Origin: Candidatus Latescibacterota bacterium
GTDB taxonomy: Bacteria > Latescibacterota > UBA2968 > GCA-2709665
Length of the DNA: 64,000 bases
NCBI GenBank assembly: GCA_965208835.1
Contig: OZ242358.1
Span: 3,328,001 to 3,392,000 of the forward strand
Direction of reading: 5' to 3'
Shown here: positions 8,733 to 59,010 of the stretch, piece by piece
Numbering within the stretch: the stretch's first letter is position 1
Layout: each line of letters begins with the position of its first letter
Notes under the pieces: model-generated
Database searches by the model: none
Seen by the model: the letters and a program-made list of their open reading frames with translations, nothing else
Told to the model about the DNA's origin: nothing
Made by a program: the position numbers and the translations under genes

Positions 8733-8740
8733 CGCATTGT

Positions 8741-12975: not shown

Positions 12976-12988
12976 GCGTGAAGGCATC

Positions 12989-36663: not shown

Positions 36664-37977
36664 TCAAATCCGGCCCTCTTCGGGTACCTCGCGCCCGCCG
36701 TCCCAGAACCCTGGCTTGTCGGTCTCCGTCGGCCAGTACCCGCCGGCGTCTTCATTCCATTGGTTTCCGCACATCGACGAGATGATGGTCCATTCCGCCG
36801 CCCCGAAATCCGGCTCGGGATGGTACAGGAAGCGCTTCAAACCCGCCTCCCGCGAAGCAGTCAGGATACCGTAGAGATCCCGTGCCTGCATCGGGTCGCC
36901 TCCGTGGGGGCGGCGACCCGTGGACACCCAGGCGATGACCTTGTCCGGATCGCCTATGGCCTCAAGTGCCCGCCGGGTCTCGTTGTAGACCACCCTGGAG
37001 AAGAATTCGTCGGGGAAACCCATCTCCATGTCCATAAGCGAGTTGACGCCGGGCAGATCGATGCCCAATAGCGCCTTCACGACGGCGAAACACTCCGCCT
37101 CGCTCAGGGACGGATTCCACTTTCGCAACCGTCTTACCCAGCGGGATATGGTCCCGTACATGCCGTCCATGCCGCGGTGCCAGAAATAGTGTTTCGGAAA
37201 GATATAGTCGAAATACTCCGCCATCTGACAGTAGTTCTGTCCGGTGAGCGATGACCACGCCGCGGCTCGCGGGATTCCGCCCAGCTCCACCCTGCGATCG
37301 ACGGCGTCGACCTGTTCCCGCAAATACTGCCAGTCGAAGCGAGAAAGCTCCTGCCGCTTGCGCAGCCAGTAGAGCACGTCCTCGTTGACGTCGAACAGGA
37401 GCATTGCCCCCAGCATCCCCCCGTCGGCGTGGAACCGCACCAATTCCGGTGTCAGATTATGCAAACGATCCCGCATGTGGTTGATGCCGCGTTGTATTCG
37501 ATCAATCTCGGCGCCGACCTGGGCGAAGCGGGCCTCCTCACCGGGTCGGACCTCCAGGAGCTCGCCCCCGTGGTGGAAGGCCAGCTCGTAGTGGTTTTCG
37601 CCCGGACCGTCGACAATGACGCCGTGTACCTGCGGAAAGGCGTTCATCTGGTCCTGCACGTGGGCGGTCGGGCCGCCACCTGCGAAAATCAGCAGTCGCC
37701 AGCCCCGCTTTGCGGCGTTGTCCAGCATTGCGTGCAGCTTCTTCTCTTTTGTGAGGTCGCGCGGACGCTGTTCCGGGACTTCCGCCCCCAGGGCCTCGTA
37801 CACCTTCGGGTCGGGAGCCCACGCCGGAATGGTGGTGCCGTCGTCCTGGAGGAATGTCATGCGGCCCACGGCCAGACCACGCACGCCGCCGTCCTCCCAG
37901 GCGTCGAACCGCTCCTCGAACCCGTCGAGCCAGTGTTCGAACGGGCTGTCACTGCAGGTGAATACCCAGAGTTTCAT
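36664..37977 (-). CDS. Hypothetical protein, paralog of 39257-40633
   Basis: Strong coding bias, RBS GGAGG, extensive identity with the paralog. Confidence 0.85.
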   Translation of the reverse strand: MKLWVFTCSDSPFEHWLDGFEERFDAWEDGGVRGLAVGRMTFLQDDGTTIPAWAPDPKVYEALGAEVPEQRPRDLTKEKKLHAMLDNAAKRGWRLLIFAGGGPTAHVQDQMNAFPQVHGVIVDGPGENHYELAFHHGGELLEVRPGEEARFAQVGAEIDRIQRGINHMRDRLHNLTPELVRFHADGGMLGAMLLFDVNEDVLYWLRKRQELSRFDWQYLREQVDAVDRRVELGGIPRAAAWSSLTGQNYCQMAEYFDYIFPKHYFWHRGMDGMYGTISRWVRRLRKWNPSLSEAECFAVVKALLGIDLPGVNSLMDMEMGFPDEFFSRVVYNETRRALEAIGDPDKVIAWVSTGRRPHGGDPMQARDLYGILTASREAGLKRFLYHPEPDFGAAEWTIISSMCGNQWNEDAGGYWPTETDKPGFWDGGREVPEEGRI

Positions 37978-38150
37978 TTTCCCCTCCTTTTGGCCTGCCA
38001 GGAGCGATTTCCGTCAACGGCCTTGCGATACCCGACGTTTCAGGAGCGTAGCGGAGGTATTGTGCCCGGAGGGCCGAAAAGCCGGATCCGCAGCTCGACG
38101 TGGTATATGATTTGCCAGCCGGTATGGTCTGGGGTTCCCAACGACCAGCA

Positions 38151-38993
38151 TCAGACCCTGGTTTTGAAATGCGCACCTGCATCGTCGTCACCGAATAGCC
38201 AGCCAGTGTCATCGTTGCCAAATCGTTCATTTATCTCACTGGCATTGGGTAACAACGCGTAGGATTCAGGAGTGTTTATCTTTGAGGTTCGAGGATCGAG
38301 GTGGTAGTCCAGCTCATCACATCTGGGTAACTCGAGTCCCAGGAATCCGAAGATCTCCCTGGCTGCAGCGCGATTCGTTCCGAGGTCCCCGGTGTATAGA
38401 CTCTCGTAGTTGACCTTCATGTAAGTACCGATTGCGCGCCGTTCAATCACACTGTTGTAGCAGCCCCTGAGCTCTTTCGCGTATTCGAGACCGTCTTCGA
38501 TTTTCTTCAGGGAAACTGGCTTCAGATTCCGGTAGATGTGCCTGGTTTCCTCATTTAAGTCCGAGATCTGCCAGACTTTCGTTTGTTCGGCTATGCATCC
38601 GGAGACTTCGGCTCGCAGCAGATTCGCCCTTTGCAGGAAGATGACGGTGACCTCAGGAGAAAGCAACAGATGGGTGTATAGCTCTTTTGGAAGTTGGTAG
38701 CTGAGGATCTTTATCCCGTTGTACCTGGCGAAGAGATCGTCAAGGGCTTTCTCAAGCGACGGAACGTCCTCAATGAAGTCTACGTAGTTCCTCTCTCCCG
38801 GGTTTTCCTTTGCGTATCCGTGCCAGAACGGTTCAAGCGCGACGTTCATCAGCGGATGCAGCTGCAAAATGCGGTAGAGCGTCGTACTTCCGCTTCGCGC
38901 ATGTGCAAAGATGACGGTTCTTTCCGGAGGACTTGCCATCTCGTAATTCAAGAGTGCATCTATTTCCTGGGTACTCTGAATCCGCTTCTTCAC
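38151..38993 (-). CDS. Sulfotransferase (Stf0-like)
   Basis: ARSGST PAPS loop, IFLQRANLL...S, VNYESL. Confidence 0.8.
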   Translation of the reverse strand: MKKRIQSTQEIDALLNYEMASPPERTVIFAHARSGSTTLYRILQLHPLMNVALEPFWHGYAKENPGERNYVDFIEDVPSLEKALDDLFARYNGIKILSYQLPKELYTHLLLSPEVTVIFLQRANLLRAEVSGCIAEQTKVWQISDLNEETRHIYRNLKPVSLKKIEDGLEYAKELRGCYNSVIERRAIGTYMKVNYESLYTGDLGTNRAAAREIFGFLGLELPRCDELDYHLDPRTSKINTPESYALLPNASEINERFGNDDTGWLFGDDDAGAHFKTRV

Positions 38994-39025
38994 GAACTAC
39001 GCCATTCAACTTAGTGGGAGGCCAG

Positions 39026-39085
39026 ATGTCCGAGGACGATCAGAGGAGTCAAGTAGAAGCTCGATGGGAACAAATCGGCGAGGAA
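39026..39085 (+). pseudogene. 5' stump of methyltransferase 50149-50898
   Basis: MSEDDQRSQVEARWEQIGEE vs MSEEDQRSQVEARWEQIGKE. Confidence 0.85.
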
Positions 39086-39256
39086 ACGCCGGCCGGGGAT
39101 CAGGGCCTGTGGCGTCCGTTGCCAGGGGTCGCGGCGGATCGGGCCTTCCGGCGCATTGGGTGAATCACGTTGTGATTAGCCGGTTTCTGGGGACGTCGAT
39201 TCCCCGAGTCGGCGAAGCGACGAATCCCGCAGATAAGTCCCGCAACGGGCGCATGC

Positions 39257-40633
39257 CTACCTGCTGAACGCGTCGGGCCTGCCGGAGTCCGAGGGCCAGT
39301 ACGCGTCGCGGCTCGGGTGCCAGCGCTTGCCGCACAGGTCGGAGATCACGCTCCATTCGGGGGCGCTCAGATCAGGGTCCGGCTGGAACAGGAAGCGCTG
39401 CAGGCCGGCCCGCTCGGAGGCGGTCAGGATGCCGTGCAGGTCGCGGGCGGTCATGGGCTCGCCCCCATGCGGACGGCGCCCCGTCGACACCCAGGCGATC
39501 ACCTTGTTCACATCCCCGATGGCCTCCAGCGCTCGGCGCGTCTCGTTGTACACCAGCTCCGAGAAGAACTCCTCGGGGAACCCCAGTTCCATGTCCGCCA
39601 GGGTCTGCACCCCGGGAAGCTCCAGCCCCAGAAAGGCCTTGACCACGGCGAAGCCGTCTGCCTCCAACAGGGTCGGGTTCCAGTCCAGGACCTGCTGCAC
39701 CCAGCGGGCCATGGTGCCGTAGAGGCCGTCATTCCCGCGGTGCCAGAAGTAGTGCTTGGGGCAGACGTAGTCGAAGTACTCCGCCATCTCGCCAAATTCG
39801 TGCCCGGTCAGTGACGAGAAAGCAGCGGTGCGCGGAATGCCCCCCAGCTCCACCTTCCCTCCCAATCTCTGCATCTGCGTGTGCACGGCGCGCATGAACC
39901 CCCGCGCCGCTTCGCGGCGGGCGCGCAGCCAGTACAGGGCATCCTCGTTCAGGTCGAACAGGTTCAGTGCCCCCAGCATGCCGCCGGACGCGTGGTAGCG
40001 CACCAGATCCGGAGTCAGGTTGTGGAAACGCTCGTTCAGGTGCGCCATGCCGCGGGCGACGCGCTCCACATCGGCGCCGATGGCTTCCAGGCGGTGCCGC
40101 ATGCGACCGTCCAGTTCCAGTAGGGCCTGACCCCGATGGAAGGCAAGTTCGTAGAAGGTCTCACCGGGCTGGTCCAGGATGACGCCGTGGGCCTGGGGAT
40201 AGGCACTGGCCAGGTCGTGCACCCCGGCGGCCACCTCGATGGCCCCAAAAGGGTCCTCCTCCTCGGCTAGGCCGCTGGTGGTACCCTGGCCCCGCTGGTA
40301 GAGCAGCCGGAGCCCGTCTCTGGAGTCGAAGATCATGATGTGCCAGCCCCGGGAGGCGGCGTTGTCGAGGAGCGCGTGGAGCTGCTTCTCCCTCTCGGGG
40401 GTGCGGGCCGTTTCCGGGGGCGGCTTTATGCCGAACGCGGCGTACACCTTTGGGTCCGCCGCAAACGAGGGGGTGAGGGTGTCCCCCCACAACGGCATGC
40501 CGGCCTCGTTCCTGAGCCACATCCGTCCCACCACGATGCCGCCCACCCCTCCCGCCTCCCACGCGTCGAAGATGCGCGGGTAGTCGTCCAGCCAGCGCTC
40601 CAGGGGATTGTGCACGAAGATCCAGGGTACCAT
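39257..40633 (-). CDS. Hypothetical protein, paralog of 36664-37977
   Basis: Shared YELAFH, PKHYFWHRG.DG.YGT and IAWVSTGRRPHGG blocks. Confidence 0.85.
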   Translation of the reverse strand: MVPWIFVHNPLERWLDDYPRIFDAWEAGGVGGIVVGRMWLRNEAGMPLWGDTLTPSFAADPKVYAAFGIKPPPETARTPEREKQLHALLDNAASRGWHIMIFDSRDGLRLLYQRGQGTTSGLAEEEDPFGAIEVAAGVHDLASAYPQAHGVILDQPGETFYELAFHRGQALLELDGRMRHRLEAIGADVERVARGMAHLNERFHNLTPDLVRYHASGGMLGALNLFDLNEDALYWLRARREAARGFMRAVHTQMQRLGGKVELGGIPRTAAFSSLTGHEFGEMAEYFDYVCPKHYFWHRGNDGLYGTMARWVQQVLDWNPTLLEADGFAVVKAFLGLELPGVQTLADMELGFPEEFFSELVYNETRRALEAIGDVNKVIAWVSTGRRPHGGEPMTARDLHGILTASERAGLQRFLFQPDPDLSAPEWSVISDLCGKRWHPSRDAYWPSDSGRPDAFSR

Positions 40634-40659
40634 CGCGTCACCTCTCTCTCTGCATGATG

Positions 40660-40760
40660 GTCGGTTCCTTAACTGCACATTCAATGAGCATCCACAGCTA
40701 GAAACCCATCATGCCCAAGAGGAGGACAAGCAGGATTTCCCAAAGACCTATGCCGAACAT
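40660..40760 (-). pseudogene. 5' stump of a small membrane protein (PLDc_N-like)
   Basis: RBS GGGAGG, then MFGIGLWEILLVLLLGMMGF*LWMLIECAVKEP with an internal TAG; cut off by the next gene. Confidence 0.55.
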
Positions 40761-42091: not shown

Positions 42092-42119
42092 GGTCCACCG
42101 TATATCGCAGGACAATTAA

Positions 42120-42307
42120 CCTCAATGGGAAAAACAGCAACGCGGCTACGCGACAAAACCCTCCGAACCGGGGCGTTATCGACGTATAGAAGGACGTTTT
42201 TTCCTACACGTCGAGTGACCTGGTGTATCCTGGTAATCCGCCTTCTAATCGCCTTTATAAACTGGCACATATTCGAATTAACGTCCGCGAAAAATGACGA
42301 ATCAAGG
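42120..42307. mobile_element. MITE-A copy 2
   Basis: CCTCAAT...GAATCAAGG, flanked by TTAA and TCAA. Confidence 0.85.
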
Positions 42308-42324
42308 TCAAATCTCTGCCTGGT

Positions 42325-44460
42325 TCAGTCTCCCGCGTCCGCCCACTGGTACACGTGGACCTCCAGCGGCAGGAACAGATCGATGAACTCTCGGGACTCG
42401 CTCTGCGCCATGCGATCCTCGAACAGCACCCTGGGCTGAACTGGTCGGTCGAACCGCCACGTGCCCAGGACCAGGGCCGGTTCCACGTTGACGGCGATCA
42501 GGGTGTGGACGCCGTCGTGCAGCCGCTCGATGAAGTGAATGGCGTCTCCCTCCTGCTCGAGCCGCACGCCTTGTACCTGGGTGCCCGCCGCCAGTATGGG
42601 GGCCAGATGTCGCACCTCGCTGGCGACCTTGAGCACCTCGGTCCATTGCCGCGGATAGATGGCCACGTCGTCGGTGTACTCCGTGCCGGGAATCTCGCCC
42701 CCGGGCGCGTAGAACAGCAGCCCTTTGACACCCCTCGTCAGGGCGAGGTAGTTCATGGACCGAATCTCCTCGCGACTGGGCCGGAAACCCCCTTCGAGGG
42801 TAACGACCTCGCCGCGCTTGCTGTCGAGACGATAGTCGAAGGCCTGGGAGATGAACCAAACATGCTTGCCCTTGCCCTCCACCCGCGCAGCCTCGAAGGC
42901 ATCGTCGAGGACCAACTCGTAGATCGAGGTGATCGAGTCGTCGGGCAGCAGCGGGTTCAGAATTGGGTAGCCGTAAACGAAGTAAGCGTCGCTGAGTCTC
43001 CCACCCCATGTGAGCATGAAGATGACCGGGTGGTCCGTGTCGTGCTGCCGGATGAGCTCGTAGGTCTCGGTCGCCAGGGGAGACTGGTTGTCGCTGGCGT
43101 ACTCGTTCCACCACCCCAGCATGGCCGGGTGGTCCTTCGCCTGCTGCACCACCTCCGTGAGTTGCCCGGGCTCGCCTCTGCCCAGGGCCAGCGAGGCGTA
43201 GTACACGTGCACCAGCCCCTTCATCCCGAGATCCAGCAGATCGTCCAGCATCTCCCCGGCGCCTTCGCCGATCAGCTTGTAGTTGATCCCGGCCTCGGCC
43301 GCCTGGGCGATATAGGGCATCCTGCTCGTGGGTGAGACGTTCGACGAGTAGATTCCCACCGGAAAAAAGGGCTCGCCGTTGACGCGAAACACGTCCCCGT
43401 CGAAACGCGACTCCAATGAAACCGGCTCGTTGACGCCGAAGCGCCAGCGCAGTCGATTGCCGGCGTTGCCGGCGCGGTCGTTGACGACCACCTCCACCTG
43501 GTGGATGCCGTCCTCCAGGGCTCCGATCTCCGAGAAGGTGAATCCGCCCTCCGCTACGGCGGCGCCGGCGGTGACGTCCTCGCCGTCCAGCAGGACCCGC
43601 ACGGAGGCGACGTCGATGCCCGAGCCCTCGTCATCGAAGACAGCCGATATAACCGGCGAACCGTCGACCCTCGTGTCCGGCGCGGGGCTGGGGAGCACGA
43701 GCGCCGGCGGCCTGGTGTCCCTCTCCACCACCGGCGTGGTCTGCGCCATCAGGCGATCCCGCATCGATATCCTCAGGTCCTTTTCCGCCACGTATTGAGT
43801 GACGATCTCCCGGTCTGACAGGGCGCGGTTGTACACCCGGACGTCGTCGATCTGACCCGTGAAGTGGCCGCCCAGGCCGGAGCCGTAGAAGCTGGCGCCG
43901 ATGTACATCGGCGCCTCCAGGGTGCCGGTCGCGAAGGGCTCACCGTACCGCCCTCTCAGGCCGCCGTTCACGTAAACCCTGATCCCGTCGCCGTCGTACC
44001 TGCCGGCCAGGTGAAACCAGCTGTCCTGCCGGACGCCTCCGCCGGCGGCGCTCTTGCCGTGCTCGGGACACTCCACCAGGGAGAACCGGACCGCGTTCTG
44101 GCCGAGGCTGAGCCGGTAGTTCTGGCGCAGCGTACTGCAGCCGTTCTTCGACAGTACGGTCTGCCCGGATCTGACGGACGTGTTCACCCAGCAGGTCACC
44201 GTGACCGCATCGGAGAGTCTCAGCATCTCCGAGTCCGGGATCTCCACGTAGTCATCCACCCCGTCGAAGCGGAGGGCGTAGCCCTGATCCAGTTCCACGT
44301 ACTCGGCCCCGTGAATGGCGCCCTGGAGGCCGTGGCCCGAGGCATCGCCGGCCACGGAGCCGGCCCCCTCATCGAACATGTAGTGCGCCACGAGGCCCTC
44401 CTCCGCCGCCGCGGCGCCGACGGCGAGGGAGAGGAGGATCAGCCCTATCTTCGTTCCCAT
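42325..44460 (-). CDS. Secreted LamG-domain protein with Ig-like and glycoside-hydrolase-like regions
   Basis: Signal peptide, FDGVDDYV...GQIDDVRVYNRAL, VNGEPFFPVGIY, HPAMLGWWNE. Confidence 0.82.
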   Translation of the reverse strand: MGTKIGLILLSLAVGAAAAEEGLVAHYMFDEGAGSVAGDASGHGLQGAIHGAEYVELDQGYALRFDGVDDYVEIPDSEMLRLSDAVTVTCWVNTSVRSGQTVLSKNGCSTLRQNYRLSLGQNAVRFSLVECPEHGKSAAGGGVRQDSWFHLAGRYDGDGIRVYVNGGLRGRYGEPFATGTLEAPMYIGASFYGSGLGGHFTGQIDDVRVYNRALSDREIVTQYVAEKDLRISMRDRLMAQTTPVVERDTRPPALVLPSPAPDTRVDGSPVISAVFDDEGSGIDVASVRVLLDGEDVTAGAAVAEGGFTFSEIGALEDGIHQVEVVVNDRAGNAGNRLRWRFGVNEPVSLESRFDGDVFRVNGEPFFPVGIYSSNVSPTSRMPYIAQAAEAGINYKLIGEGAGEMLDDLLDLGMKGLVHVYYASLALGRGEPGQLTEVVQQAKDHPAMLGWWNEYASDNQSPLATETYELIRQHDTDHPVIFMLTWGGRLSDAYFVYGYPILNPLLPDDSITSIYELVLDDAFEAARVEGKGKHVWFISQAFDYRLDSKRGEVVTLEGGFRPSREEIRSMNYLALTRGVKGLLFYAPGGEIPGTEYTDDVAIYPRQWTEVLKVASEVRHLAPILAAGTQVQGVRLEQEGDAIHFIERLHDGVHTLIAVNVEPALVLGTWRFDRPVQPRVLFEDRMAQSESREFIDLFLPLEVHVYQWADAGD

Positions 44461-44687
44461 ATTGACACTCGTATCTCCGAAAGGTCTGACTTGCGTTCCG
44501 CAGAACGTCCGGGCTGTTTCTGCTCCGTCCAACGCAGCGGGGCTTACGTCGCACGACGTAAGCCCCGTTCGTTTCACCTCCTCGATGAGGTCCAACCCAC
44601 GCCACCTTCACCGGCCTTACCCCTTCCGGCACGCCATCACCCGGAAGGTCGAGGAGAAGGGCAGTGTCGACCTGCGCCCGTTTCGGT

Positions 44688-45969: not shown

Positions 45970-46929
45970 CTACCCCGCAAACTCAGTCCTCAACAGCGGT
46001 TGAACACGATACCTCCATTGGCTCTCAATCAAGGAATGGTCTGGTGATTTTGCGGCTGCTTCCAGGATATTCGCAGCTGCTCGACTGGCCATGAGGGTAG
46101 GTATGTACGCTTCCAAGTCCCTGCTGAGTGAACGAACTTCACGATACCCGTTCAAAAACGCATCAGACCTCTCCTGGAAATCGGGACGACCGTAGGGGCC
46201 GGCCAGGATAACAGCGATGTCATACAGATAGTAGCCGAATCCGCAGTCGCCGAAATCAATCGCGATGGCGTGATCCGGTCGAAAGAGGACATTTCCGAAA
46301 CTGAGGTCTGCGTGAATGAGGCCGAACGTCTCTGTGTCGTCGCCCATCTGGTGTTCCGCTTCTGTTAGCCGACCATAGACCGTTTCCAGATCGCGGCGAA
46401 CAGGAGCCGGTCCAATCTCATCTAAAGGAAACTTCGAACGGGATCCGATAAGTCCCTCAGCGTCATACGTGGGTCGATCAAAACCCGTGGGTAGGGACCA
46501 AGCTTCAGAGTGATTGTGCAACTCACCCGCAACGCGGCCAAGCAATTCGAAGTGCCGAGGCGATCGGTGGTCCTGATCCAGGATGCGTCCGCTGAGCCAG
46601 GAAGTAACGGATACCGGGAATGGTCCGGGTACGCCTGGAACATCTGTCACGATAACTCTTTTGCCGTCAGGCGATTTATAGGGCCGTGGAACGGAGAGCG
46701 TGGTATCGTGGCAGAGAGCCTCCAGCCAATCCAATTCCGATTCAATTATCCGGGGCGCCTTCTTGTCACGGTGAATCCGCACTCGATACTCGCCTGAATC
46801 GCAGGTCCACTTCAACTTGCGACAACGGCATTTTCCGAAACCCAGTTCGCGGAGCGCGGCTTCTTCCACCTTGCGTAACCGGCGGATTCGTCCCTGGTGA
46901 GTTAGCTCGTCGAAGCTCCGTATGGCCAT
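45970..46929 (-). CDS. APH/homoserine kinase II-like phosphotransferase
   Basis: SELDWL, IHADLSFGN, IDFGDCGFG. Confidence 0.9.
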   Translation of the reverse strand: MAIRSFDELTHQGRIRRLRKVEEAALRELGFGKCRCRKLKWTCDSGEYRVRIHRDKKAPRIIESELDWLEALCHDTTLSVPRPYKSPDGKRVIVTDVPGVPGPFPVSVTSWLSGRILDQDHRSPRHFELLGRVAGELHNHSEAWSLPTGFDRPTYDAEGLIGSRSKFPLDEIGPAPVRRDLETVYGRLTEAEHQMGDDTETFGLIHADLSFGNVLFRPDHAIAIDFGDCGFGYYLYDIAVILAGPYGRPDFQERSDAFLNGYREVRSLSRDLEAYIPTLMASRAAANILEAAAKSPDHSLIESQWRYRVQPLLRTEFAG

Positions 46930-46955
46930 TCCGACCTCCACAAATGCACCGTCAA

Positions 46956-47075
46956 CATCCGTTGAAGACAGACCGCAAGGGACAACACGCTATCGCCATC
47001 AACGAACAATGGCGCATCTGTTTTCGGTTTGTCGACGGGGACGCTTACGACGTTGAAATCACGGACTATCACTGA
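46956..47075 (+). pseudogene. higB: higB (RelE-like toxin), C-terminal half only
   Basis: HPLKTDRKGQHAIAINEQWRICFRF..GDAYDVEITDYH; N-terminus missing. Confidence 0.85.
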
Positions 47076-47087: not shown

Positions 47088-47402
47088 ATGGCCATCACAA
47101 ATACACAAGAACGCGCCATCCCGCCGACTCATCCAGGTGAGATGCTGCGTGAGGATTTCCTGCCGGAATATGCGCAAACAGTGACGTCCCTGGCGGCGGC
47201 ATTGGGTGTATCCCGTCAGACGATAAATGAGCTTCTGCGGGAGCGGCGCGCCATCTCACCCATCATGGCATTGAAACTTGCCCGCTTGTTCGGGAACTCT
47301 CCAGAATTTTGGATGAGGGCCCAACACAAAAGAGATCTTTGGGAATCAGAGCAGCGACATCAAGGCGAACTGGCGAATATCGCACCGCTCGCGATTACGT
47401 AG
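47088..47402 (+). CDS. higA: HigA antitoxin (HTH)
   Basis: PTHPGEMLREDFL, LGVSRQTIN, GNSPEFW. Confidence 0.93.
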   Translation: MAITNTQERAIPPTHPGEMLREDFLPEYAQTVTSLAAALGVSRQTINELLRERRAISPIMALKLARLFGNSPEFWMRAQHKRDLWESEQRHQGELANIAPLAIT

Positions 47403-47494
47403 ACGACGTTTCCCTGCGCAAAACCCTTCCCCCTTTTTCTCGTAACGTCTTCCGCGCCCCCGAACCGCGCTACGGTTGGGCAAGGAGCCGAATG

Positions 47495-47644
47495 GCCGGA
47501 TCCGCAGCCCGACGTGTTATTTGATTTGCCAGCCGGGGTGGTGTGGGGTTCTCAGCGCCCGGCATCAGACCGTGGTCTTAACAAGCACACCTGGGTAGCT
47601 CGAGTCCCAGGAATTCGAAGATCTCCCTGGCGGCAGCACGATTC
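47495..47644 (-). pseudogene. 3' stump of a second sulfotransferase copy with its attC half-site
   Basis: Matches 38081-38179 joined to ~38323-38377 (internal deletion). Confidence 0.85.
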
Positions 47645-47661
47645 ATCCCAGATTGTGTCTT

Positions 47662-49950
47662 TTATTGAGTCGCTCCGTGGGCAAGTAGCAGAGCGCGGAT
47701 CTTCTCCGCCTCTGCTCTGGTCCACCCGTCTTCCCTGAACCACCCACTCATCTTCAGGGGGGTGTAGCCGTATTGCGCCTTTAAATTGACCTTGGCCCTT
47801 CGGGCGACCAGCATTTCAACGGCGTTCACCGACTGTCTGCCGACCGCTTCATGCAAGGCGGTCCAACCATCGGGTCGCTGTGCGTCGACGTTGGCCCCTC
47901 GATCCAGCAACAATTCCAAGACCGCCACCTGGTCATTTGCGGCCGCGGCGATGAGCGGCTCAGCGCTCTGGAGGAGCACGGGATCCGCGGCCAGGAGCAC
48001 CTCGACTTGCTCCACGCGTCCCAAGGCCGCTGCCGCGACTACAGTCCAAGGCGCGCCGCCCTCGACCAGGGCATCGGCGACGGCGTGCTGGCCGTTGTAG
48101 GCAACTTGACGCAACAGATCTACTTGGGTGAGTTCTTGATCCATCAGCGCTGGTTCCTCCTGCAGCAACTGGCGCACCGTGTCAGCGTCGCCGTCGATGA
48201 CCGCATTGATGAAGTCAGCCCGATAGCGGAGAATCCGGGCGCGCTCGGCCGCAGGCCGGTGCTGAAGGTCGATAAACTCCTGGATCAGCCGGGCGGTACC
48301 AGGATGCTTGCGCCGGGCTCGAGAGAGAGGCGTTGTTTCCTTTGCATCCGGACTCCCCAATTTGCAGGCCGCTTCTACATCGGCCCCATGCGTGGCGAGG
48401 AGCTCTACGATGAGGGATAGGCCTTTCTCCGCGGCGTGCGCCAGGGCCTTGCGGCTGCCCCGCGTGTGCATGGCGGCGCCTCGATCCATCAGCAGCTTGG
48501 TTGCGACTAGATCGCCCTGATTGGCAGGCCAGCCCAGCGCGAACCATGGGTTGTCCGGGTTGTTCTCAGAGGGGCTGTCCTGGTTGGGATCAGCGCCGGC
48601 ATCCAGTAGTATGGTAGCCGCAGATAGGGTGCCAAAGCGAAGGGCATGGGTGAGTGGATACGCCCACGCGGTATCCTTGGGGTCCGGGTCGGCGCCGGCG
48701 TCGAGCAGGCACCGCACCAATTCATCGTTGTGCGACCGAATGGCCAGCAAGAGTGGACTACTGTCACAGTATTCATCGGGTCGCCGAATCTCCAGCTCTA
48801 CCTGCTGCTCAAGCAGCAACTCAATGATGGGGATCGAGCCCGAGCGCACTGCCCACATTATGGGGGCCGGTCCCTTGCCTACCGGATGGGCGAGTGTCGG
48901 ATCGTCGCGCAGCAAGGCGGCGACCTGCGCTTCGTCCCTATTCGCAATGGCGCCGAAGATATCGTTGGGCACGCCGCACTGGAGCAGTTCCTGCACAGCT
49001 TTTTCGTTGTCGGCTTCTCGGGCGGCCATCAGGGCCGTGTAGCCGCGCCCGTCCTTGGCTTGCACATCGGCGCCCCGGCGCAACAGCAGCTTGAAGATCC
49101 CCTGCTTGCCGGCGGCTAAGTGCAACGGCCAATCTCCGCTGGGCAACGGTTGGTTGACCCTAGCCGGGTCCGCATCGAGTAACGCGCGGGTTTCTTTCAG
49201 CATCCCCACTTTGATGGTATGCTCCAGGCCATAGGCGGCACCGGCCTCGATCAATGCCGCAACGATGTTTCGGTGACCGTGCTCGGCGGCCTCATCGATG
49301 GGCCGACGCTGATCTATGGCATTCTCCTGGTCGGGATTGGCCCCGACGTCCAGGAGCAGTCGGATCATCTCTAGCTGCCCCAGCCAGGCGGCCTTTTCCA
49401 AGGCCGAACTCCCGGCACTGTCGCCGATCCCGCCGTTGGCGTCGATATCAGCGCCGGCCTCGACCAGCCGACGAACAACCTGCAGGTGGTCCGGTGTCGG
49501 CCGCCCTACGGGAATGGCGTGATGCAGCAAGTTATCGGTCTCGGGGCCGTCGCCCTTGACGCGGACGTGGGCCAAGCCTGGGTTCTTTTGCAAGAGGGCG
49601 TCTACGGTCTCGGCGTCACCGGCTTTGACGGCCCTGCAGAGGGTTTCAACTTCCTCAGAATTTCCCACCTCTTCAGTCGGACTGCCCGCTTGTGCCAACG
49701 CTTCGACGTGGCGTTTGAGGTCCGTCCATTCCTCGAAGCCATAGTCATGGGCAATGGCGCGTCGAGTATCCTTGAGGGCAAGTTTGGCCTGGAAGATTTC
49801 GTGATCCGACAAACCAGCCAGCTCGGGAAGCGCCCGTCGGAGCCGATTGGCCGCCTCAGAATCTCTGGCCTGGTGGGCATTGAGCAACGCCTTGGCCTGG
49901 TTTCTGAGGTGCTTGAAGTTGGGATTGGGGGATAAAGCAGAGGTAGACAT
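47662..49950 (-). CDS. Large ankyrin-repeat protein with an LxxxPxxxHLRxQAK N-terminal domain
   Basis: More than 12 ankyrin repeats (GYTALMAA, GWTALHEA and others). Confidence 0.93.
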   Translation of the reverse strand: MSTSALSPNPNFKHLRNQAKALLNAHQARDSEAANRLRRALPELAGLSDHEIFQAKLALKDTRRAIAHDYGFEEWTDLKRHVEALAQAGSPTEEVGNSEEVETLCRAVKAGDAETVDALLQKNPGLAHVRVKGDGPETDNLLHHAIPVGRPTPDHLQVVRRLVEAGADIDANGGIGDSAGSSALEKAAWLGQLEMIRLLLDVGANPDQENAIDQRRPIDEAAEHGHRNIVAALIEAGAAYGLEHTIKVGMLKETRALLDADPARVNQPLPSGDWPLHLAAGKQGIFKLLLRRGADVQAKDGRGYTALMAAREADNEKAVQELLQCGVPNDIFGAIANRDEAQVAALLRDDPTLAHPVGKGPAPIMWAVRSGSIPIIELLLEQQVELEIRRPDEYCDSSPLLLAIRSHNDELVRCLLDAGADPDPKDTAWAYPLTHALRFGTLSAATILLDAGADPNQDSPSENNPDNPWFALGWPANQGDLVATKLLMDRGAAMHTRGSRKALAHAAEKGLSLIVELLATHGADVEAACKLGSPDAKETTPLSRARRKHPGTARLIQEFIDLQHRPAAERARILRYRADFINAVIDGDADTVRQLLQEEPALMDQELTQVDLLRQVAYNGQHAVADALVEGGAPWTVVAAAALGRVEQVEVLLAADPVLLQSAEPLIAAAANDQVAVLELLLDRGANVDAQRPDGWTALHEAVGRQSVNAVEMLVARRAKVNLKAQYGYTPLKMSGWFREDGWTRAEAEKIRALLLAHGATQ

Positions 49951-49972
49951 AAGACACTCTTTCGTAGGGCCT

Positions 49973-50063
49973 GAGGTCCGCGTGCATCATGCAGTAAGAG
50001 TGATGGGCCTGCTTGGGCAGTTCGCTGTGCAACAGAGGCAACCTAAGGTCTTCTCGCGGACTC
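49973..50063 (-). promoter_or_regulatory. Candidate structured 5' leader RNA
   Basis: Closing stem GAGUCCGCG/CGCGGAC(C)UC enclosing small hairpins, ending 22 nt before the ATG. Confidence 0.45.
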
Positions 50064-50075
50064 GGGGGCTCCCTC

Positions 50076-50119
50076 AGTGCATCCACTTCCTGGGTACTCT
50101 GAATCCGCTTCATCACCAA
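50076..50119 (-). pseudogene. 5' stump of the second sulfotransferase copy
   Basis: MKRIQSTQEVDAL vs KKRIQSTQEIDAL; 50076-50208 matches 38953-39085. Confidence 0.85.
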
Positions 50120-50148
50120 CTACGCCGTTCAACTGAGAAGGATGCCAG

Positions 50149-50898
50149 ATGTCCGAGGAAGATCAGAGGAGTCAAGTAGAAGCCCGATGGGAACAAATCG
50201 GCAAGGAAGTCTCAAGAGCACCTGGGTACACAAATGAGATGGAAGACCTGCACGATTTCTTCGACATGGCTGCTGATATATGGGACGAGAAATTCGGACC
50301 CGGTTCAGCCCAAGTCTATGTCGAAATGGCTGGTCAGATTTCCCCCACGGAAGGGCAAATTCGAATCCTTGATCTCGGGTGTGGGACTGGCTTGGAGCTG
50401 GACCAGGTATTCCTGAGAGCACCAGACGCAAGCATCACCGGCATCGATCTTGCCGCCGGGATGCTTAATCGCCTTAGAGAGAAATATCGCTCAAGGGCCG
50501 ATCAGATCCAGCTAATCGAAGGGAACTACCTTGATGTTCCATTCGGAGAAGGCGAATACGACTACGCAATATCGAGTCTCACGACACATCACCTGCCGCC
50601 GGAAAACAAGGTCATTGTGTATCGTAAGATATTCAAAGCCTTGAAGCCGTGTGGATCCTATATCGAGGGCGATCAAACAACCTCGCAAGAAGGTGAGCGA
50701 GATGGCCTTGGTCGATTCCGACGTGAGGTTGCCAGACTTCCAGAGGCTGATCGTGCTCGATGGAACTATGACATCACACTTAGCCCAGACACCAACATGC
50801 GCTTGCTCAGGGAAGCCGGTTTCAAAGTGGTGAACCTGATACGAGACGATAAACCTGGTAGGTGTGCAGTGATCGCGGCCAGGAAGACAGCCGACTGA
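50149..50898 (+). CDS. Class I SAM methyltransferase
   Basis: ILDLGCGTGLE, GIDLAAGML, LKPCG.YIEGD. Confidence 0.92.
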   Translation: MSEEDQRSQVEARWEQIGKEVSRAPGYTNEMEDLHDFFDMAADIWDEKFGPGSAQVYVEMAGQISPTEGQIRILDLGCGTGLELDQVFLRAPDASITGIDLAAGMLNRLREKYRSRADQIQLIEGNYLDVPFGEGEYDYAISSLTTHHLPPENKVIVYRKIFKALKPCGSYIEGDQTTSQEGERDGLGRFRREVARLPEADRARWNYDITLSPDTNMRLLREAGFKVVNLIRDDKPGRCAVIAARKTAD

Positions 50899-51068
50899 AG
50901 TGAATTGCCTCCAATGATCGCTCAGGGCTCTTTGGGCCGAGCGTAGCGAGCCGGGGGCCATGTGTTACACGATTGCGGCGGCGCCCCCTTCACGGCGAAG
51001 CCTTTAGCGGAGCGGAAGGACAGTGTACGCCATCGATAATCGATTTCTCCCCCTTCTTACGTTTCAGC

Positions 51069-51839: not shown

Positions 51840-52030
51840 CCTCAATCCGAAAAAAACAGCAACGCGGCGACGCGATAAAACCCTCCGAAACGGGACAATA
51901 TCGACGTATAGAATGACGTTTTTTCCCTTCACGTCCAGTGACCTGGTGTATCCTGGTAATCCGCCGTTTAATCGCCTTTATTTACAAGCACATATTTGAA
52001 TTAACGTCCCCGAAGACTTACGAATCAAGG
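51840..52030. mobile_element. MITE-A copy 3
   Basis: TTAG duplication on both sides. Confidence 0.9.
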
Positions 52031-52198
52031 TTAGGTTTCGTGCACGGTTTGTCGGGGTGGTGTTGGCGGGTTTTGCTTTTGCGCCGCTTTCGCCTGGCGT
52101 TTTCGCCGTGCCCGAACCGCGAAGCGCTTGCGCGAAGGCGCGTCAGCGCCCAAGCCGGGGACGGACATGTCATGTAAAGTGCGCTATTTCCCTCTTAG

Positions 52199-53185: not shown

Positions 53186-53247
53186 ACATAACGTGGGAGT
53201 GCGGGGCCGGAGCGACCGAAGGATGCGAAGCTGCAACCCGTTGTTAA
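53186..53247 (-). other. attC site whose R'' box is interrupted by MITE-A
   Basis: Removing the MITE restores GCTTAAC-AACGG-GTTGCAGC...CCGCACT-CCCAC-GTTATGT; the APH gene starts 33 bp later. Confidence 0.75.
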
Positions 53248-53436
53248 CCTCAATCCGAAAAAACAGCAACGCGGCGACGCGATAAAACCCTCCGAAACGG
53301 GGCAATATCGACGTATAGAATGACGTTTTTCCCTTCACATCCAGTGACCTGGTGTATCCTGGTAATCCGCGTTTTAATCGCCTTTATTTACAAGCACATA
53401 TTTGAATTTACGTCCCCGAAGACTTACGAATCAAGG
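53248..53436. mobile_element. MITE-A copy 4
   Basis: TTAA duplication on both sides. Confidence 0.9.
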
Positions 53437-53516
53437 TTAAGCGCAGGCGGCTCAGTAGAGGCGAAGCCACACATAGGCGACCCCAGAACGCACGGTTACC
53501 CGATTCAGCTTCTCGT

Positions 53517-56447: not shown

Positions 56448-57431
56448 TCATTCCCGTTCGAATTGACCCGAACGAACCATCGCATGGATCAGGTTCAGGA
56501 TCAGCCGGCCGGCCGTATGTCCGCCCAGGCCGTGCAGATCGTGTTGCGGAACGAACTCAACCATGTCCATTCCCACCACGCGCCCCTTCTGCGGCAGGCC
56601 GCGGAGCAGGTCCGCTGCCTCGGCAAATGTCAGACCACCCGGCTCCGGGTGGCTCACCGCTGGACTGATGGACGGGTCCAGCCCATCAAAATCCAGCGTA
56701 ATAAAATAGTTCGCGTCGTCCGGAATCCGCTCCAGCACCGCCGCAATCCCCTGCTCGTGCACCTCCCGCTCGGAAATCAGCACATTGCCTGTTGCCAGCG
56801 CATCCTCTACGTCGTCAATGCGGCCGCTACCCGTCCCGCGCAGCCCCACCTGGACAATCTTCGCTACCCAATCCATCTCCGAAACCCGTCGCATCGGACT
56901 GCTGTACCCTTCCCGCACCCCGTCCACCTCGTCTCTGAAGTCCAGATGCTGGTCAATCTGTACGACAACAATCGGCCCGAACTCGCGGTACGCCCGAATC
57001 ACGGGAATGGGAACCGCGTCGTCTCCGCCAAACACAATCGGCACCGCGCCCCGGGAGAGGATCGTCTGTACCGCCTCCGTGGCCCGATCCACTGCGCCCT
57101 TCAGATCCATCGGATCGCCCGGTACATCGCCGCAGTCCACAATCCGGATCGCCCGACCGTCCAGCAGTGGTCCGCCAAAATCGAAACTGTAAAACGGCCC
57201 CATTGCATTGCGGTACCGCAACGACTTCTCGCGCAAATATCCGGGCGCGTCGAATGTCCACGACTGTCCCATCTCGTACGGAATGCCGTAAGGCACACCC
57301 AGAATCGCAATCTCCGCCTCCAGCGCCGACACATTCGTCTCCACCGGCGCCTGGATAAAGGAGATGAACCCGCCGCTCGCCGGTTTCCCGAGGGTCCGGT
57401 ACGACGGAATCGCGGTCAAAGGCAACGCCAT
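56448..57431 (-). CDS. Agmatinase/ureohydrolase family protein
   Basis: GGDD, DQHLD, SSPMRR, DFDGLDP, PGGL. Confidence 0.9.
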   Translation of the reverse strand: MALPLTAIPSYRTLGKPASGGFISFIQAPVETNVSALEAEIAILGVPYGIPYEMGQSWTFDAPGYLREKSLRYRNAMGPFYSFDFGGPLLDGRAIRIVDCGDVPGDPMDLKGAVDRATEAVQTILSRGAVPIVFGGDDAVPIPVIRAYREFGPIVVVQIDQHLDFRDEVDGVREGYSSPMRRVSEMDWVAKIVQVGLRGTGSGRIDDVEDALATGNVLISEREVHEQGIAAVLERIPDDANYFITLDFDGLDPSISPAVSHPEPGGLTFAEAADLLRGLPQKGRVVGMDMVEFVPQHDLHGLGGHTAGRLILNLIHAMVRSGQFERE

Positions 57432-57641
57432 CGCGTTATCCTCCTGAACATAAGGTATAGTTTCAAGTAGCCATGCATGCGTTTTCTGATATTTCAGCTA
57501 AATAACGTATTAGCCTGGAAAATCGATAAGTCGTAGCTTATATGGGTCTGTGCCTCCCCCTTTCGTGAAGCAACGAACGTGCAGAGATTCCGCGTAAGCC
57601 TTCAGATTTTCCCCCGATGTCTCGATCTATTGAGCAATCAT

Positions 57642-57832
57642 CCTCAATCCGAAAAAAACAGCAACGCGGCGACGCGATAAAACCCTCCGGAACGGGGTGT
57701 TATGGACGTATAGAAGGACGTTTCTTCCCTACACGTCCAGTGACCTGGTGTATCCTGGTAATCCGCCGTCTAATCACCTTTATTTACAAGCATATATTCG
57801 TATTTTCGTCCCCGAAGGCATACGAATCAAGG
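57642..57832. mobile_element. MITE-A copy 5 (tandem, left)
   Basis: Homology to the other copies; shares TTAG with copy 6; left duplication lost. Confidence 0.88.
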
Positions 57833-57836
57833 TTAG

Positions 57837-58025
57837 CCGCAATTCCGCAAAAGCCGCAACGCGGCACCGCGACAAAACCCTTCGAAACAGGCCGAAATCG
57901 TCGTCATAAAGGACATTTTTTAATTCACGTACAGTGTCCTGGTGTATCCCGGTAATCAGTAGTCTAATCGCCTTTTTAACCGACACATATTCGAATTAAC
58001 GTCCTCGAAAAATGAGGAATCAAGG
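57837..58025. mobile_element. MITE-A copy 6 (tandem, right)
   Basis: TTAG on both sides; the right TTAG includes the stop codon of the adjacent gene (minus strand GCCTAA|C). Confidence 0.85.
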
Positions 58026-58709
58026 TTAGGCTTTGGTTGCAACGATCGCCAGCAGAGATGGGAGCGCGTCACCATCCAATTCGGCAACTGATTCGAGCCG
58101 CAAGTCAGCAGCGAGCAATTTGTTGAAGAGTTCGGCAAGAGGAACGTGCCGGACACCCACCTTCGACCGAATGCCCTCACCCAATCCAGGACCTTCGAAA
58201 ACTCGTGCTGTTTCCCGGTAACCCGGATGGATCCTGGCAATTCCCGTGTCTCTCTCGATGGTCGCAAATGGTCCCAGAAAACAGGGATGTGTGCCCAGGA
58301 TAACGAAACGCCCGTGACGATCCAGGACGCGGTGTGCTTCCGAGAAGAATGGCCCTACATCATCGAAATCAGTAAGTGTCAATACCGACACGACGCGTCG
58401 AAACGTGGCTGACGAGAAAGGCAGACTAAACGCATTGGCTTGGACAATCCTCGGAGAGCGATCACTTGCCAGTCGAAGCTGGTCCGCTGAAAGGTCGACT
58501 CCGATTACGGACCAGCCAAGCGATTGCAGTAGCTGGAGATGCACACCTGTTCCGCAACCAATGTCCACACAGAGTCCGGAGCCGGGTCCAACCAAACGCG
58601 ATAGATGAGCCGGGATGTTCTCGTAGAAAGGCATCTTGAGATATTCATCGTACCACGTCGCCCAGCCGTCGTATCGGGCACCATCTTGGTTGGAATTCAA
58701 GGAAGGCAT
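58026..58709 (-). CDS. Class I SAM methyltransferase
   Basis: DIGCGTG, GVDLSADQL, HPCF. Confidence 0.92.
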   Translation of the reverse strand: MPSLNSNQDGARYDGWATWYDEYLKMPFYENIPAHLSRLVGPGSGLCVDIGCGTGVHLQLLQSLGWSVIGVDLSADQLRLASDRSPRIVQANAFSLPFSSATFRRVVSVLTLTDFDDVGPFFSEAHRVLDRHGRFVILGTHPCFLGPFATIERDTGIARIHPGYRETARVFEGPGLGEGIRSKVGVRHVPLAELFNKLLAADLRLESVAELDGDALPSLLAIVATKA

Positions 58710-58904: not shown

Positions 58905-59010
58905 GCCTAACGGTTCTTGGCTTTACGACCTGGGCCAGTCCCAAAGGCCCATGGGCCCGAAGGGCCGAGCGGCAGATGCCCCGAGACGTAAAGCCAGTGT
59001 CGTGTTAGCC
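58905..59010 (-). other. Complete attC site
   Basis: Minus strand GGCTAAC-ACGACAC-TGGCTTTACG...CGTAAAGCCA-AGAACC-GTTAGGC; perfect GTTRRRY. Confidence 0.82.

Follow-up and report, generated by a model that had tools for sequence, protein, structure and literature searches.

Within a stretch of 64,000 nucleotides, hereafter the window, an intact ankyrin-repeat gene lies between a methyltransferase gene and the 3' stump of a sulfotransferase gene, which raises the question of how it came to occupy that place. An earlier note on this DNA had proposed that the ankyrin gene and its leader overwrote the middle of the sulfotransferase, within a duplicated two-gene unit that had decayed reciprocally. 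We compared the window with the corresponding loci of nine close relatives (L001 to L009, giving ten genomes in all) and with a wider set of 27 loci.

The array and its attC-like repeats

The window is a stretch of a large array, similar to an integron cassette array, whose genes are co-oriented and accompanied by attC-like repeats; the minus strand holds 54 of 58 working ORFs, and the accessory genes (GNAT, methyltransferase, APH-type kinase, NUDIX and a toxin-antitoxin remnant, among others) are mostly unrelated. In the nine close relatives the gene order of the corresponding region is shuffled, and gene blocks are present or absent from one relative to the next. When the ten genomes are compared, the difference met most often is a deletion with its end at an ORF border: a Laminin_G_3-domain gene (42325-44595 in the window) is fused to the sulfotransferase ATG in L006 to L008, and sulfotransferase 5' stumps precede the gene at 39257-40684 in L004 and L009, each of which carries one truncated and one full sulfotransferase copy with other genes in between. 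While deletions are many, the ten genomes contain no other example of foreign DNA inside a gene, a 195-nt repeat (51840-52034 and its copies) aside.

The attC sites of integrons carry R'' and R' boxes (RYYYAAC...GTTRRRY) in one orientation and form an imperfect hairpin in single-stranded DNA. The attC-like family of this array was recognised through the motif TAACACG and by comparison with relatives; all seven occurrences of the motif are on the minus strand, right after ORF ends, where 3.9 would be expected on both strands. An nhmmer profile was built from 11 seed repeats, most of which end in TAAC and GTTA, and after iteration 31 of 31 matches (E<=0.01) were in the cassette sense, nine of them in the window (four seeds and five non-seeds). 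These matches support the integron-like setting that the earlier note had assumed.

The repeats differ in how well they fold. Relative to shuffled sequences, four copies gave z-scores of -3.2 to -1.7 (58905-59010, -3.2; 7872-7957, -2.2; L001, -3.1; L004, -1.7), one of these being a relative's sulfotransferase site, and eight gave -0.96 to +0.67 (the copies called B and A below, +0.67 and +0.45; L009, -0.65; L002, -0.76; four others, -0.96 to +0.59). RNAalifold on a MAFFT alignment of the 11 seeds returned no consensus pairs, and 58905-59010 alone stands out in a listing of inverted repeats. A strict attC search (regular expression RYYYAAC...GTTRRRY plus folding) found one site only, which is inside a gene, and duplex scans with looser settings gave too much noise to be of use. 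The 195-nt repeat was rejected as an attC, as it folds worse than shuffles (z +1.7); it behaves like a small insertion element, and no copy is near the junctions of the ankyrin segment. Also dropped was the motif CGCTACGCTC, common to 38044 and 50939, whose frequency is not above chance.

The two cassette borders examined at base level both fall at G|TT of an R'-like box: the higA block starts TTACGAG after G 47446, with L006 homology from 47454, and the block at 12718 starts TTTCAC, with L006 homology from GGACG|TTTCAC. Many other borders, such as that of the GNAT block (35988-36661), have no such site. There is no Phage_integrase-type match in the 58 window ORFs, nor in the 32 ORFs of L001 to L009 that have no window homologue, although the array may run on past the stretches compared. 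Rfam at gathering scores gave no match across the whole window. A Pfam scan of 132 intergenic reading-frame pieces, insensitive in that known stumps go undetected, recovered only a higB remnant and an arginase-family ORF. Nothing on integrons in Latescibacteria, or on exchange of the ORF within a cassette, turned up in the portions of the literature available to us.

Two copies of a methyltransferase/sulfotransferase pair

The divergent pair occurs twice in the window, as the earlier note had stated. Comparison of 37900-39400 with 47300-51000 by blastn, together with a repeat search, showed that copy A (38070-39085) and copy B (47483-47649 plus 50076-50208) share three colinear blocks of 83-92% identity. 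The features of the two copies are:

38025-38108, minus strand: attC-like repeat of copy A (nhmmer E 1e-7)
38151-38993, minus strand: intact sulfotransferase of copy A, 280-codon ORF, probable start ATG 38939
39026-39085 (to 39088), plus strand: methyltransferase stub of copy A, 20-21 codons, 85.7% amino-acid identity
46944-47402, plus strand, opposite to the sulfotransferase stump: higA (47088-47402) and the last ~40 codons of higB (46944-47072)
47440-47522, minus strand: attC-like repeat of the sulfotransferase cassette, copy B (nhmmer E 4e-15)
47565-47650, minus strand: sulfotransferase 3' stump of copy B, comprising codons 205-225 (47586-47650) and the last 9 codons with the stop (47565-47593)
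47651-47661, minus strand: 11-nt gap from the ankyrin stop codon to the stump, from the alignment
47662-49950, minus strand: intact ankyrin-repeat gene, 762 codons (Pfam Ank_2)
49951-50075, minus strand: 125-nt ankyrin leader, no match in the window or the 27 loci
50076-50148, no strand assigned: 73 nt of methyltransferase-sulfotransferase spacer kept in copy B, from alignments
50149-50898, plus strand: intact class I SAM-dependent methyltransferase of copy B, 249 aa (Methyltransf_25)
Block 1, A 38070-38179 and B 47483-47593: 83% over 111 nt, E 9e-24
Block 2, A 38318-38376(81) and B 47586-47644(49): 92% over 59 nt, E 9e-19
Block 3, A 38953-39085 and B 50076-50208: 91% over 133 nt, E 3e-48

The sulfotransferase of the window scores 19.5 bits against Pfam Sulfotransfer_3, below the cut-off of 27 (E 1.3e-3). 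When its homologues were aligned (alignment A2), 17 of 17 members matched PF13469 at E<=0.01 (best 3.5e-8), and the profile of this alignment matched the NodH LPS sulfotransferase 9vki (E 1.5e-5). R33, G35 and S36 of the motif HARSGST are invariant in all 17 sequences; we take this motif, near the N-terminus, to be the putative PAPS-binding loop. As for the start codon, in 6 of the 12 sulfotransferase copies compared the DNA is unrelated from 0-10 nt before ATG 38939, more distant homologues likewise begin at the methionine of this ATG, and the N-terminal extension (50076-50119 in B) is confined to copies with an upstream methyltransferase. These comparisons suggest that the true start is probably ATG 38939, and B therefore probably retains spacer and not sulfotransferase coding sequence at its right flank. 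What the earlier note took for the first ~14 codons of the gene (50076-50119) is thus most likely spacer; in B this spacer ends at 50076, and another 14 nt would separate it from the site of the probable ATG. The spacer is present with every methyltransferase copy seen, and its homology to A, L001, L003 and L004 breaks off at 50075|50076.

At the other flank, the 3' end that the earlier note described is indeed present as a stump with its stop codon (47565-47567), although it is broken by an extra 146-bp deletion relative to A and four relatives. This deletion is flanked by imperfect CAG(A/G)TG repeats, with its junction at 47586-47593, and the 59-nt piece of the stump is 98% identical to L001. 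Beyond the stump, the supposed attC half-site proved to be a complete repeat, with an R''-like AAATAAC at 47522-47516 and an R'-like GTTACGA whose G is at 47446, colinear with L009, L001 and L002; the part shared with A is its left half, as A/B homology stops inside the repeat and the right halves differ. The adjoining HigBA module is incomplete. HigA is intact (NCBIfam TIGR02607, 98.3 bits against a cut-off of 47.7) and HigB covers only positions 53-91 of 91 of the Pfam HigB-like_toxin profile, with truncation points that differ between the window and L007/L008. As in B, higA lies beside the sulfotransferase site in three of the nine close loci (L001, L002 and L009).

The methyltransferase of B is intact, as previously read (Methyltransf_25, E 3e-19, 69.9 bits against a cut-off of 27), and is 92-94% identical in amino acids to the intact copies of L004 and L009. 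Beside a sulfotransferase, the methyltransferase is intact in two, a remnant in three and absent in four of the nine close loci. The intact pair of L009 is at the position of A, and that of L004 sits upstream of the SAICAR-synthetase gene, like B. Both flanks of B are closest to L009 (methyltransferase side, 92.6% over 768 nt; higA side, 90.1% over 514 nt), where their counterparts form one contiguous block of methyltransferase, sulfotransferase and higA, in that order. Copy B thus derives from a contiguous block of methyltransferase (reverse strand), an 86-nt spacer, sulfotransferase, attC-like site and higA/higB remnant.

The reciprocal decay proposed earlier is borne out, since L009 and L004 show the undecayed pair: A, whose sulfotransferase is intact, has lost the methyltransferase but for the stub of ~20 codons already noticed, and B has lost the sulfotransferase. 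The loss in A is the older, its junction being common to L001, L002 and L003. Because A lost the methyltransferase instead, one intact copy of each gene is still in the genome. The outcome resembles reciprocal loss of duplicated genes, in that one copy retains only the first gene and the other only the second. Unlike the products of duplication in place followed by loss, however, A and B have diverged by 8-17% and stand at positions that are singly occupied in different relatives (L004 as against L001 to L003 and L009), and recombination between strains, rather than duplication in place, may have brought them together. Promoter and terminator scans around both copies gave nothing exceeding shuffle expectation.

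The ankyrin gene and the origin of the arrangement

Alignment of A with B and inspection of the junctions, as the earlier note had suggested, placed the borders of the B-only segment at 47650/47651 and 50075/50076. This segment (47651-50075, 2425 bp) consists of 11 nt, the ankyrin ORF and the 125-nt leader; it has no match elsewhere in the window and no attC-like match at E<=0.01, and it occupies the place of ~570 bp of sulfotransferase (A 38383-38952). The encoded protein matches Ank_2 in eight stretches (E 2e-72, 240 bits, cut-off 27.3) and Ank at 157 bits. Its full-length relatives (754-788 aa) comprise one that is 99% identical and a next at 59%, and the best named ones are MAG proteins labelled Latescibacteria, Chloroflexota and Dehalococcoidia. 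The gene has a G+C content of 0.62-0.63, against 0.53-0.54 for the flanking unit, and is absent from all 27 loci. Judged by its composition, by this absence and by the distance of its protein relatives after the single 99% match, the ankyrin gene looks foreign.

Against the NCBIfam equivalogs for Legionella Dot/Icm Ank effectors, the best score was that of AnkY/LegA9, 99 bits with a cut-off of 600, which reflects the repeats only, and no signal peptide was noticed on reading the protein by eye. Insofar as the accessible parts of the publications on ankyrin-repeat proteins of sponge-associated bacteria describe them (PMC12993501, PMC7081726, PMC8163846), the protein is like these in being large and in coming from a Latescibacterota-type genome.

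Ahead of the attC-like site of the sulfotransferase, the ankyrin gene is the sole intact ORF in cassette sense; the old divergent spacer is immediately upstream of it, and transcription of the gene may start there. A simple consensus scan found no promoter-like site in the spacer or in the leader. The leader folds like its shuffles (z -0.32) and has no match to the attC profile; its AAGACCTTAGGT stretch was rejected as an attC remnant, the profile finding no match even at E 1000.

We tentatively favour, with somewhat less than an even chance of being right, a reading in which the ankyrin piece entered the contiguous B block by illegitimate recombination and replaced most of the sulfotransferase. 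A 2.4-kb piece that brought in the ankyrin gene with the 125 nt natively upstream of it would have taken over the stretch that runs from 14 nt ahead of the sulfotransferase start codon through codon 204, either in one step, as an insertion with deletion, or by insertion followed by deletion. Entry would have been illegitimate and not site-specific, and no site-specific signature is seen at the junctions of the segment. The stump was worn down further by the separate deletion of 146 bp, which lies between short imperfect repeats. Deletions of the stump would halt where a selected ORF begins, which could explain why the junction is merely 11 nt past the ankyrin stop codon. Against this reading, the right flank holds no demonstrable sulfotransferase coding sequence, so that of the two flanks the earlier note invoked as parts of one gene, the 3' stump is the only sign of a sulfotransferase having adjoined the ankyrin gene. 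Moreover, no relative carries the ankyrin gene, which leaves no empty-versus-filled comparison, no donor and no test of junction microhomology. Also weighing against it are the lack of a second foreign insertion within a gene where deletions are many, the poor folding of the attC-like site of B, and the negative searches for an integrase and for promoter-like sites described above. The arrangement that the earlier note named as refuting its view, two sulfotransferase copies on either side of a normal ankyrin cassette, is seen in none of the nine relatives, a result of little weight given that all nine lack the ankyrin gene.

A real though lesser chance attaches to deletions around an ankyrin gene that was an ordinary array member between a methyltransferase-sulfotransferase unit and a sulfotransferase-higA unit, so that the two stumps come from different gene copies. 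One deletion would have begun 14 nt ahead of the ATG of the first sulfotransferase, taken out that gene and stopped 125 nt short of the ankyrin start; another would have cost the ankyrin gene the site downstream of it, and the second sulfotransferase its initial two-thirds. The prevalence of ORF-border deletions among the ten genomes favours this history, as do the truncated and full sulfotransferases with genes between them in L004 and L009 and the stepwise erosion that the 146-bp deletion records; and, the right flank being spacer only, a single-gene origin of both flanks is not required. It would, however, need a third sulfotransferase copy in the ancestor, where relatives show at most two; the second attC-like site and other cassette DNA left no trace on either side of the ankyrin gene; and both flanks are nearest to L009, where they are contiguous. 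Overwriting of one sulfotransferase and a pair of deletions on either side of an ankyrin gene between two copies could not be told apart: the 2425-bp segment does stand in the place of the sulfotransferase middle, as the earlier note held, and that it came there by overwriting is not established.

An integrase could have put an ankyrin cassette into a secondary site of the methyltransferase-sulfotransferase cassette, the cassette's own attC being lost later. We consider this very unlikely, despite the attC-like repeats of the array, the G|TT of the R'-like box at the borders of the higA block and the block from 12718, and a CTTAGGT in the leader that is one base off the consensus GTTRRRY: neither junction has G|TT, the right junction is 29 nt from TTAGGT, the leader lacks an attC profile match, and neither the window nor the flanks of the relatives yielded an integrase. 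Misassembly across similar copies, joining the ankyrin segment to sulfotransferase fragments, is hardly credible. Both copies, with stretches 83-92% identical, do lie in one window of what is probably a metagenome assembly, judging by the MAG relatives; but the junctions do not coincide with ends of shared repeats, each has unique sequence on its ankyrin side, the flanks of B are 8-17% off A and closer to other genomes, as expected of a separate copy, and the stump of B has its own 146-bp deletion.

Known systems and the second ankyrin gene

Sedentary chromosomal integrons carry long cassette arrays, and attC clusters without an integrase are called CALIN in IntegronFinder usage. The array resembles these in its many consecutive accessory genes, co-oriented and for the most part unrelated, in its oriented repeat family with TAAC...GTTA ends after ORFs, and in gene blocks that vary between close relatives, with G|TT borders in two cases. 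It differs in that no integrase was seen in the window or in the relatives' 32 ORFs, in having nine repeat matches for 58 ORFs, in that most repeats fold no better than shuffles, and in its many junctions at ORF borders without any repeat. Insertion with deletion, by illegitimate or homology-facilitated illegitimate recombination, is likewise a known concept. Copy B is similar to its products in that foreign DNA replaces resident DNA while the flanks keep order and orientation, and in junctions that have neither target duplication nor terminal repeats; the homologous anchor and junction microhomology are not demonstrable at B, the donor not being in the compared genomes. As an instance of gene decay and rearrangement, the locus is neat yet fairly ordinary.

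A second ankyrin gene in the window has a similar layout:

12716-14035, minus strand: ankyrin gene (12989-14035), then ~56 codons from the 3' end of a methyltransferase-family gene, left as a stump (12795-12962), and next the right arm of an attC-like site, whose R' G is at 12719

Both ankyrin ORFs are intact and look foreign, and in both cases the ankyrin stop codon is 11-27 nt from the 3' stump of a different resident gene, which is followed by an attC-like site. To our knowledge, the origin of cassettes, or cassette genesis, is still an open question in integron biology. Genes might become mobile cassettes by taking the place of the ORF in an existing cassette whose 3' end and attC are retained; we regard this as unlikely, and raise it because both ankyrin genes in the window show the scar that it predicts.

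If ORF replacement were general, it would offer a simple, testable route of cassette genesis. If the in-place replacement at B is true, cassette content changes without an integrase, and a foreign gene acquires an existing expression context and recombination site; if the arrangement instead reflects two deletions, the locus is one of ordinary deletional erosion. The ten related genomes hold a dense record of array shuffling and erosion in a poorly known phylum, one that covers ORF-border deletions, insertions of the 195-nt repeat and stepwise pseudogene decay.

Two decaying copies of a methyltransferase/sulfotransferase unit

The sulfotransferase region (copy A, ~38070-39085) and the methyltransferase/ankyrin region (copy B, ~47483-50208) were found by blastn, in agreement with a repeat search, to share three colinear homology blocks.

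38151-38993, minus: copy A sulfotransferase ORF, 280 codons (ORF scan)
50149-50898, plus: copy B methyltransferase, 249 codons (ORF scan and Pfam)
47662-49950, minus: ankyrin gene in copy B, 762 codons (ORF scan and Pfam)
A 38070-38179 = B 47483-47593: block 1, 83% over 111 nt, E 9e-24 (blastn)
A 38318-38376 = B 47586-47644: block 2, 92% over 59 nt, E 9e-19 (blastn)
A 38953-39085 = B 50076-50208: block 3, 91% over 133 nt, E 3e-48 (blastn)

These blocks are far beyond chance and bear out the earlier note's claim that a divergent pair occurs twice; reciprocal decay of a duplicated two-gene unit is supported. Copy A retains only the first 20-21 codons of its methyltransferase (39026-39088). Copy B alone carries 47651-50075 (2425 bp), made up of the ankyrin ORF with its 125-nt leader and a further 11 nt; this segment occupies the position of ~570 bp of copy A's ORF and has no match elsewhere within the window.

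The methyltransferase is class I SAM-dependent (Methyltransf_25, 69.9 bits). The large ankyrin protein has eight Ank_2 stretches (Pfam) and is full length compared with relatives of 754-788 aa, one of which, encoded on a 17.7-kb contig, is 99% identical and the next at most 59%. The name sulfotransferase is weakly supported for the window protein taken alone, which scores 19.5 bits against PF13469 (cut-off 27). Judged on the family as a whole, profile comparison supports this identity: PF13469 is matched by all 17 aligned members (E≤0.01), and the family profile finds the NodH sulfotransferase structure 9vki (E 1.5e-5).

A genome scan with the sulfotransferase alignment gave 27 loci, of which the closest nine (L001-L009) show 79-91% protein identity and 87-99% DNA identity to the window across many kilobases; the other 18 entered the tblastn and blastn tables only, with tblastn rows shown at ≥40% identity. 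Complete chromosomes are available among the relatives (OZ242180.1, OZ220733.1, OZ241917.1). The genes recur among the nine loci, but their order differs.

L009: gene 39257-40684, intact methyltransferase (reverse), intact sulfotransferase, higA (reverse), gene 36664-37977
L004: intact pair placed as copy B is in the window, upstream of the SAICAR-synthetase gene
L001: 20-codon methyltransferase stub plus a decayed 3' part (9462-9827) that is lost from the window, L002 and L003
L002, L003: stub junction identical to the window's
L005-L008: sulfotransferase present, methyltransferase absent

The presence of the intact pair, or of stub or partial copies, at these loci establishes that the two-gene unit is real for the window's lineage, and the state of the methyltransferase (a stub in L001, a junction common to L002 and L003) that its decay in copy A predates the window's strain. 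By sequence comparison, L001 represents an intermediate of this stepwise decay.

Copy A is flanked by paralogues of 437 and 475 aa (36664-37977 and 39257-40684; ~54% identical), which have no Pfam or NCBIfam match and are 93-99% conserved in all nine relatives at varying positions. Record titles of the nine name Candidatus Latescibacterota (five), Gemmatimonadota (three) and uncultured bacterium (one), although the loci are 96-99% identical in DNA to the window and one another, so at least one phylum label is wrong.

An integron-like array

The minus strand holds 54 of the window's 58 working ORFs, G+C per kilobase ranges from 0.43 to 0.67, and accessory families include GNAT, methyltransferase, APH-type kinase, NUDIX and Kelch-repeat genes. 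All seven occurrences of the heptamer TAACACG are on the minus strand, immediately 3' of an ORF. An initial strict attC search did not pick up the attC-like family of oriented repeats to the 3' side of ORFs; with a profile built from eleven aligned seeds and then iterated, all 31 matches at E≤0.01 lie in the cassette sense.

56454-57497, minus: arginase-family ORF (Pfam Arginase, E 7e-54), overlapped by a longer plus-strand ORF
59007, 52172, 47519, 38105, 23959, 20990, 7954, 6891, 1832: nine attC-like matches in the window (profile search), four of them profile seeds

The G|TT of the R'-like end box forms the border of two gene blocks. Compared with shuffles, four copies fold into clearly better hairpins and eight do not, and no integrase was found among the window ORFs or 32 further ORFs of relatives; we therefore call the window an integron-like array with attC-like repeats, a candidate rather than an established integron. 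In L001, L004, L005 and L009 the same two neighbours stand without the GNAT gene block 35988-36661, which has borders a few bases past the upstream stop codon and no recognised attC-like site. The stretch 8543-8787 duplicates 1601-1832 (75-84% identity), including an attC-like match and the first ~40 codons of APH-type gene 782-1849; in the first stretch only this APH-type 5' stump is left (8626-8742), and it lies directly ahead of GNAT gene 7986-8579.

A separate 195-nt repeat was rejected as an attC on account of its terminal inverted repeats, target duplication, and filled versus empty sites.

3945-4139, 42117-42311, 51840-52034, 53246-53440, 57642-57836, 57849-58033: 195-nt repeats, window
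L009 9784-9983, L009 10840-11032, L002 9785-9983: 195-nt repeats, relatives

The inverted repeats are imperfect (CCTTGATTCG / CGGATTGAGG), the duplication is CTAA/CTRA, and sites filled in L009 and L002 are empty in L004 and L001. L009 has one copy between methyltransferase and sulfotransferase; a second lies precisely at the stop codon of the sulfotransferase, for which it provides a new TAA. The repeat behaves like a miniature insertion element.

Junctions and history of the ankyrin segment

To the left of the ankyrin gene, the earlier claim that copy B keeps the sulfotransferase 3' end stands in that a stump is there, but alignment shows it broken by a further 146-bp deletion: sequence present in A, L001, L002, L004 and L005 is missing between two imperfect CAG(A/G)TG repeats, leaving codons 205-225, the final nine codons and the stop. 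Likewise, the homology between A and B covers no more than the left half of the attC-like repeat, as the term "attC half-site" implied, but B's repeat is complete (47440-47522), and from it the sequence stays colinear with that of L009, L001 and L002 as far as higA and into it.

left of the B stump, opposite strand to it: higA, intact (NCBIfam)
46944-47072, left of the B stump, opposite strand: higB remnant, last ~40 codons (Pfam)

The APH-type gene 45970-46941 abuts the cut end of higB in the window. The higB gene is cut at other points in L007 (14390-14520) and L008 (7170-7300) and continues further in L002 (11415-11545) and L006 (7330-7460); these truncations beside an intact antitoxin are independent events.

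On the right, the first ~14 sulfotransferase codons that the earlier note assigned to B are probably spacer rather than coding sequence. When upstream DNA of twelve sulfotransferase copies was compared, six with a methyltransferase or stub upstream (A, L001-L004, L009) had the N-terminal extension in common, while in the other six (L005-L008 and the truncated L009 and L004 copies) unrelated DNA begins 0-10 nt before ATG 38939, the same methionine at which distant homologues start. This comparison, together with the homologues' start, places junction 50075|50076 inside the 86-nt spacer that separates methyltransferase and sulfotransferase, 14 nt upstream of the latter's probable start. Alignment to relatives revealed no target duplication, terminal repeats or G|TT at 47650/47651 or 50075/50076, and a profile search found no attC-like match in the 125-nt leader, which argues that the ankyrin event was not site-specific.

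Two histories can account for this arrangement. The ankyrin piece could well have entered a single L009-type methyltransferase-sulfotransferase-higA block, at the expense of the sulfotransferase stretch between position -14 and codon 204, a reading we hold just short of probable. Copy B's flanks match a block that elsewhere is contiguous, as it is in relatives; the nearest relative of both flanks is L009; and both its composition and its distribution give the ankyrin gene a foreign look. It is also possible, if somewhat doubtful, that the gene originally lay between two sulfotransferase-bearing units and that two deletions trimmed either side: these genomes differ from one another most often by deletions that end at an ORF border, a truncated sulfotransferase copy stands beside a full one in L004 and L009, and the right flank has no sulfotransferase coding sequence. 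Overwriting of a single sulfotransferase, as first proposed, is plausible but is not separated from two deletions. In either history, subsequent deletions would account for the gap of 146 bp and for the tight junction, 11 nt past the ankyrin stop.

Of the checks proposed earlier, the junction alignment yielded the three blocks, but none of the 27 loci holds the ankyrin gene: the whole window, compared with them by blastn, gave no match in 47650-50075. The second sulfotransferase copies in L009 (6652-7010, codons 19-137) and L004 (5271-5369, codons 17-50) are 5' parts with differing cut points, each directly ahead of the 39257-40684 homologue. L004 also has, in the interval from its intact sulfotransferase to the SAICAR-synthetase gene, an oppositely oriented 322-aa ankyrin-repeat gene (11072-12040, minus strand of the locus; N-terminal type of the 762-aa protein, 24% identity); at the DNA level it shows no similarity to the ankyrin gene of the window.

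A second ankyrin gene with a foreign 3' stump

The layout of copy B's ankyrin gene recurs in a second unit at 12716-14035.

12989-14035: second ankyrin gene, sharing 31% identity with the N-terminal 330 residues of the large ankyrin protein
≤27 nt from its stop: 3' stump of a methyltransferase-family gene, ~56 codons

The stump is 40-51% identical to the methyltransferase C-terminus and is followed by an attC-like right arm with its R' G at 12719, exactly where L006 homology begins. With this stump, the APH-type 5' stump and the higB stump, gene stumps are common in the window.

Among the listings and abstract openings returned by a literature search, we found no description of such processes in the window's phylum. 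The copy B locus is a fresh example of processes already known, a cassette-type array being altered by illegitimate recombination and eroded by deletions. The most interesting lead is the recurring order of ankyrin ORF, foreign 3' stump and attC-like site; ORF replacement inside a cassette may conceivably, if improbably, be a route by which genes acquire an attC site.
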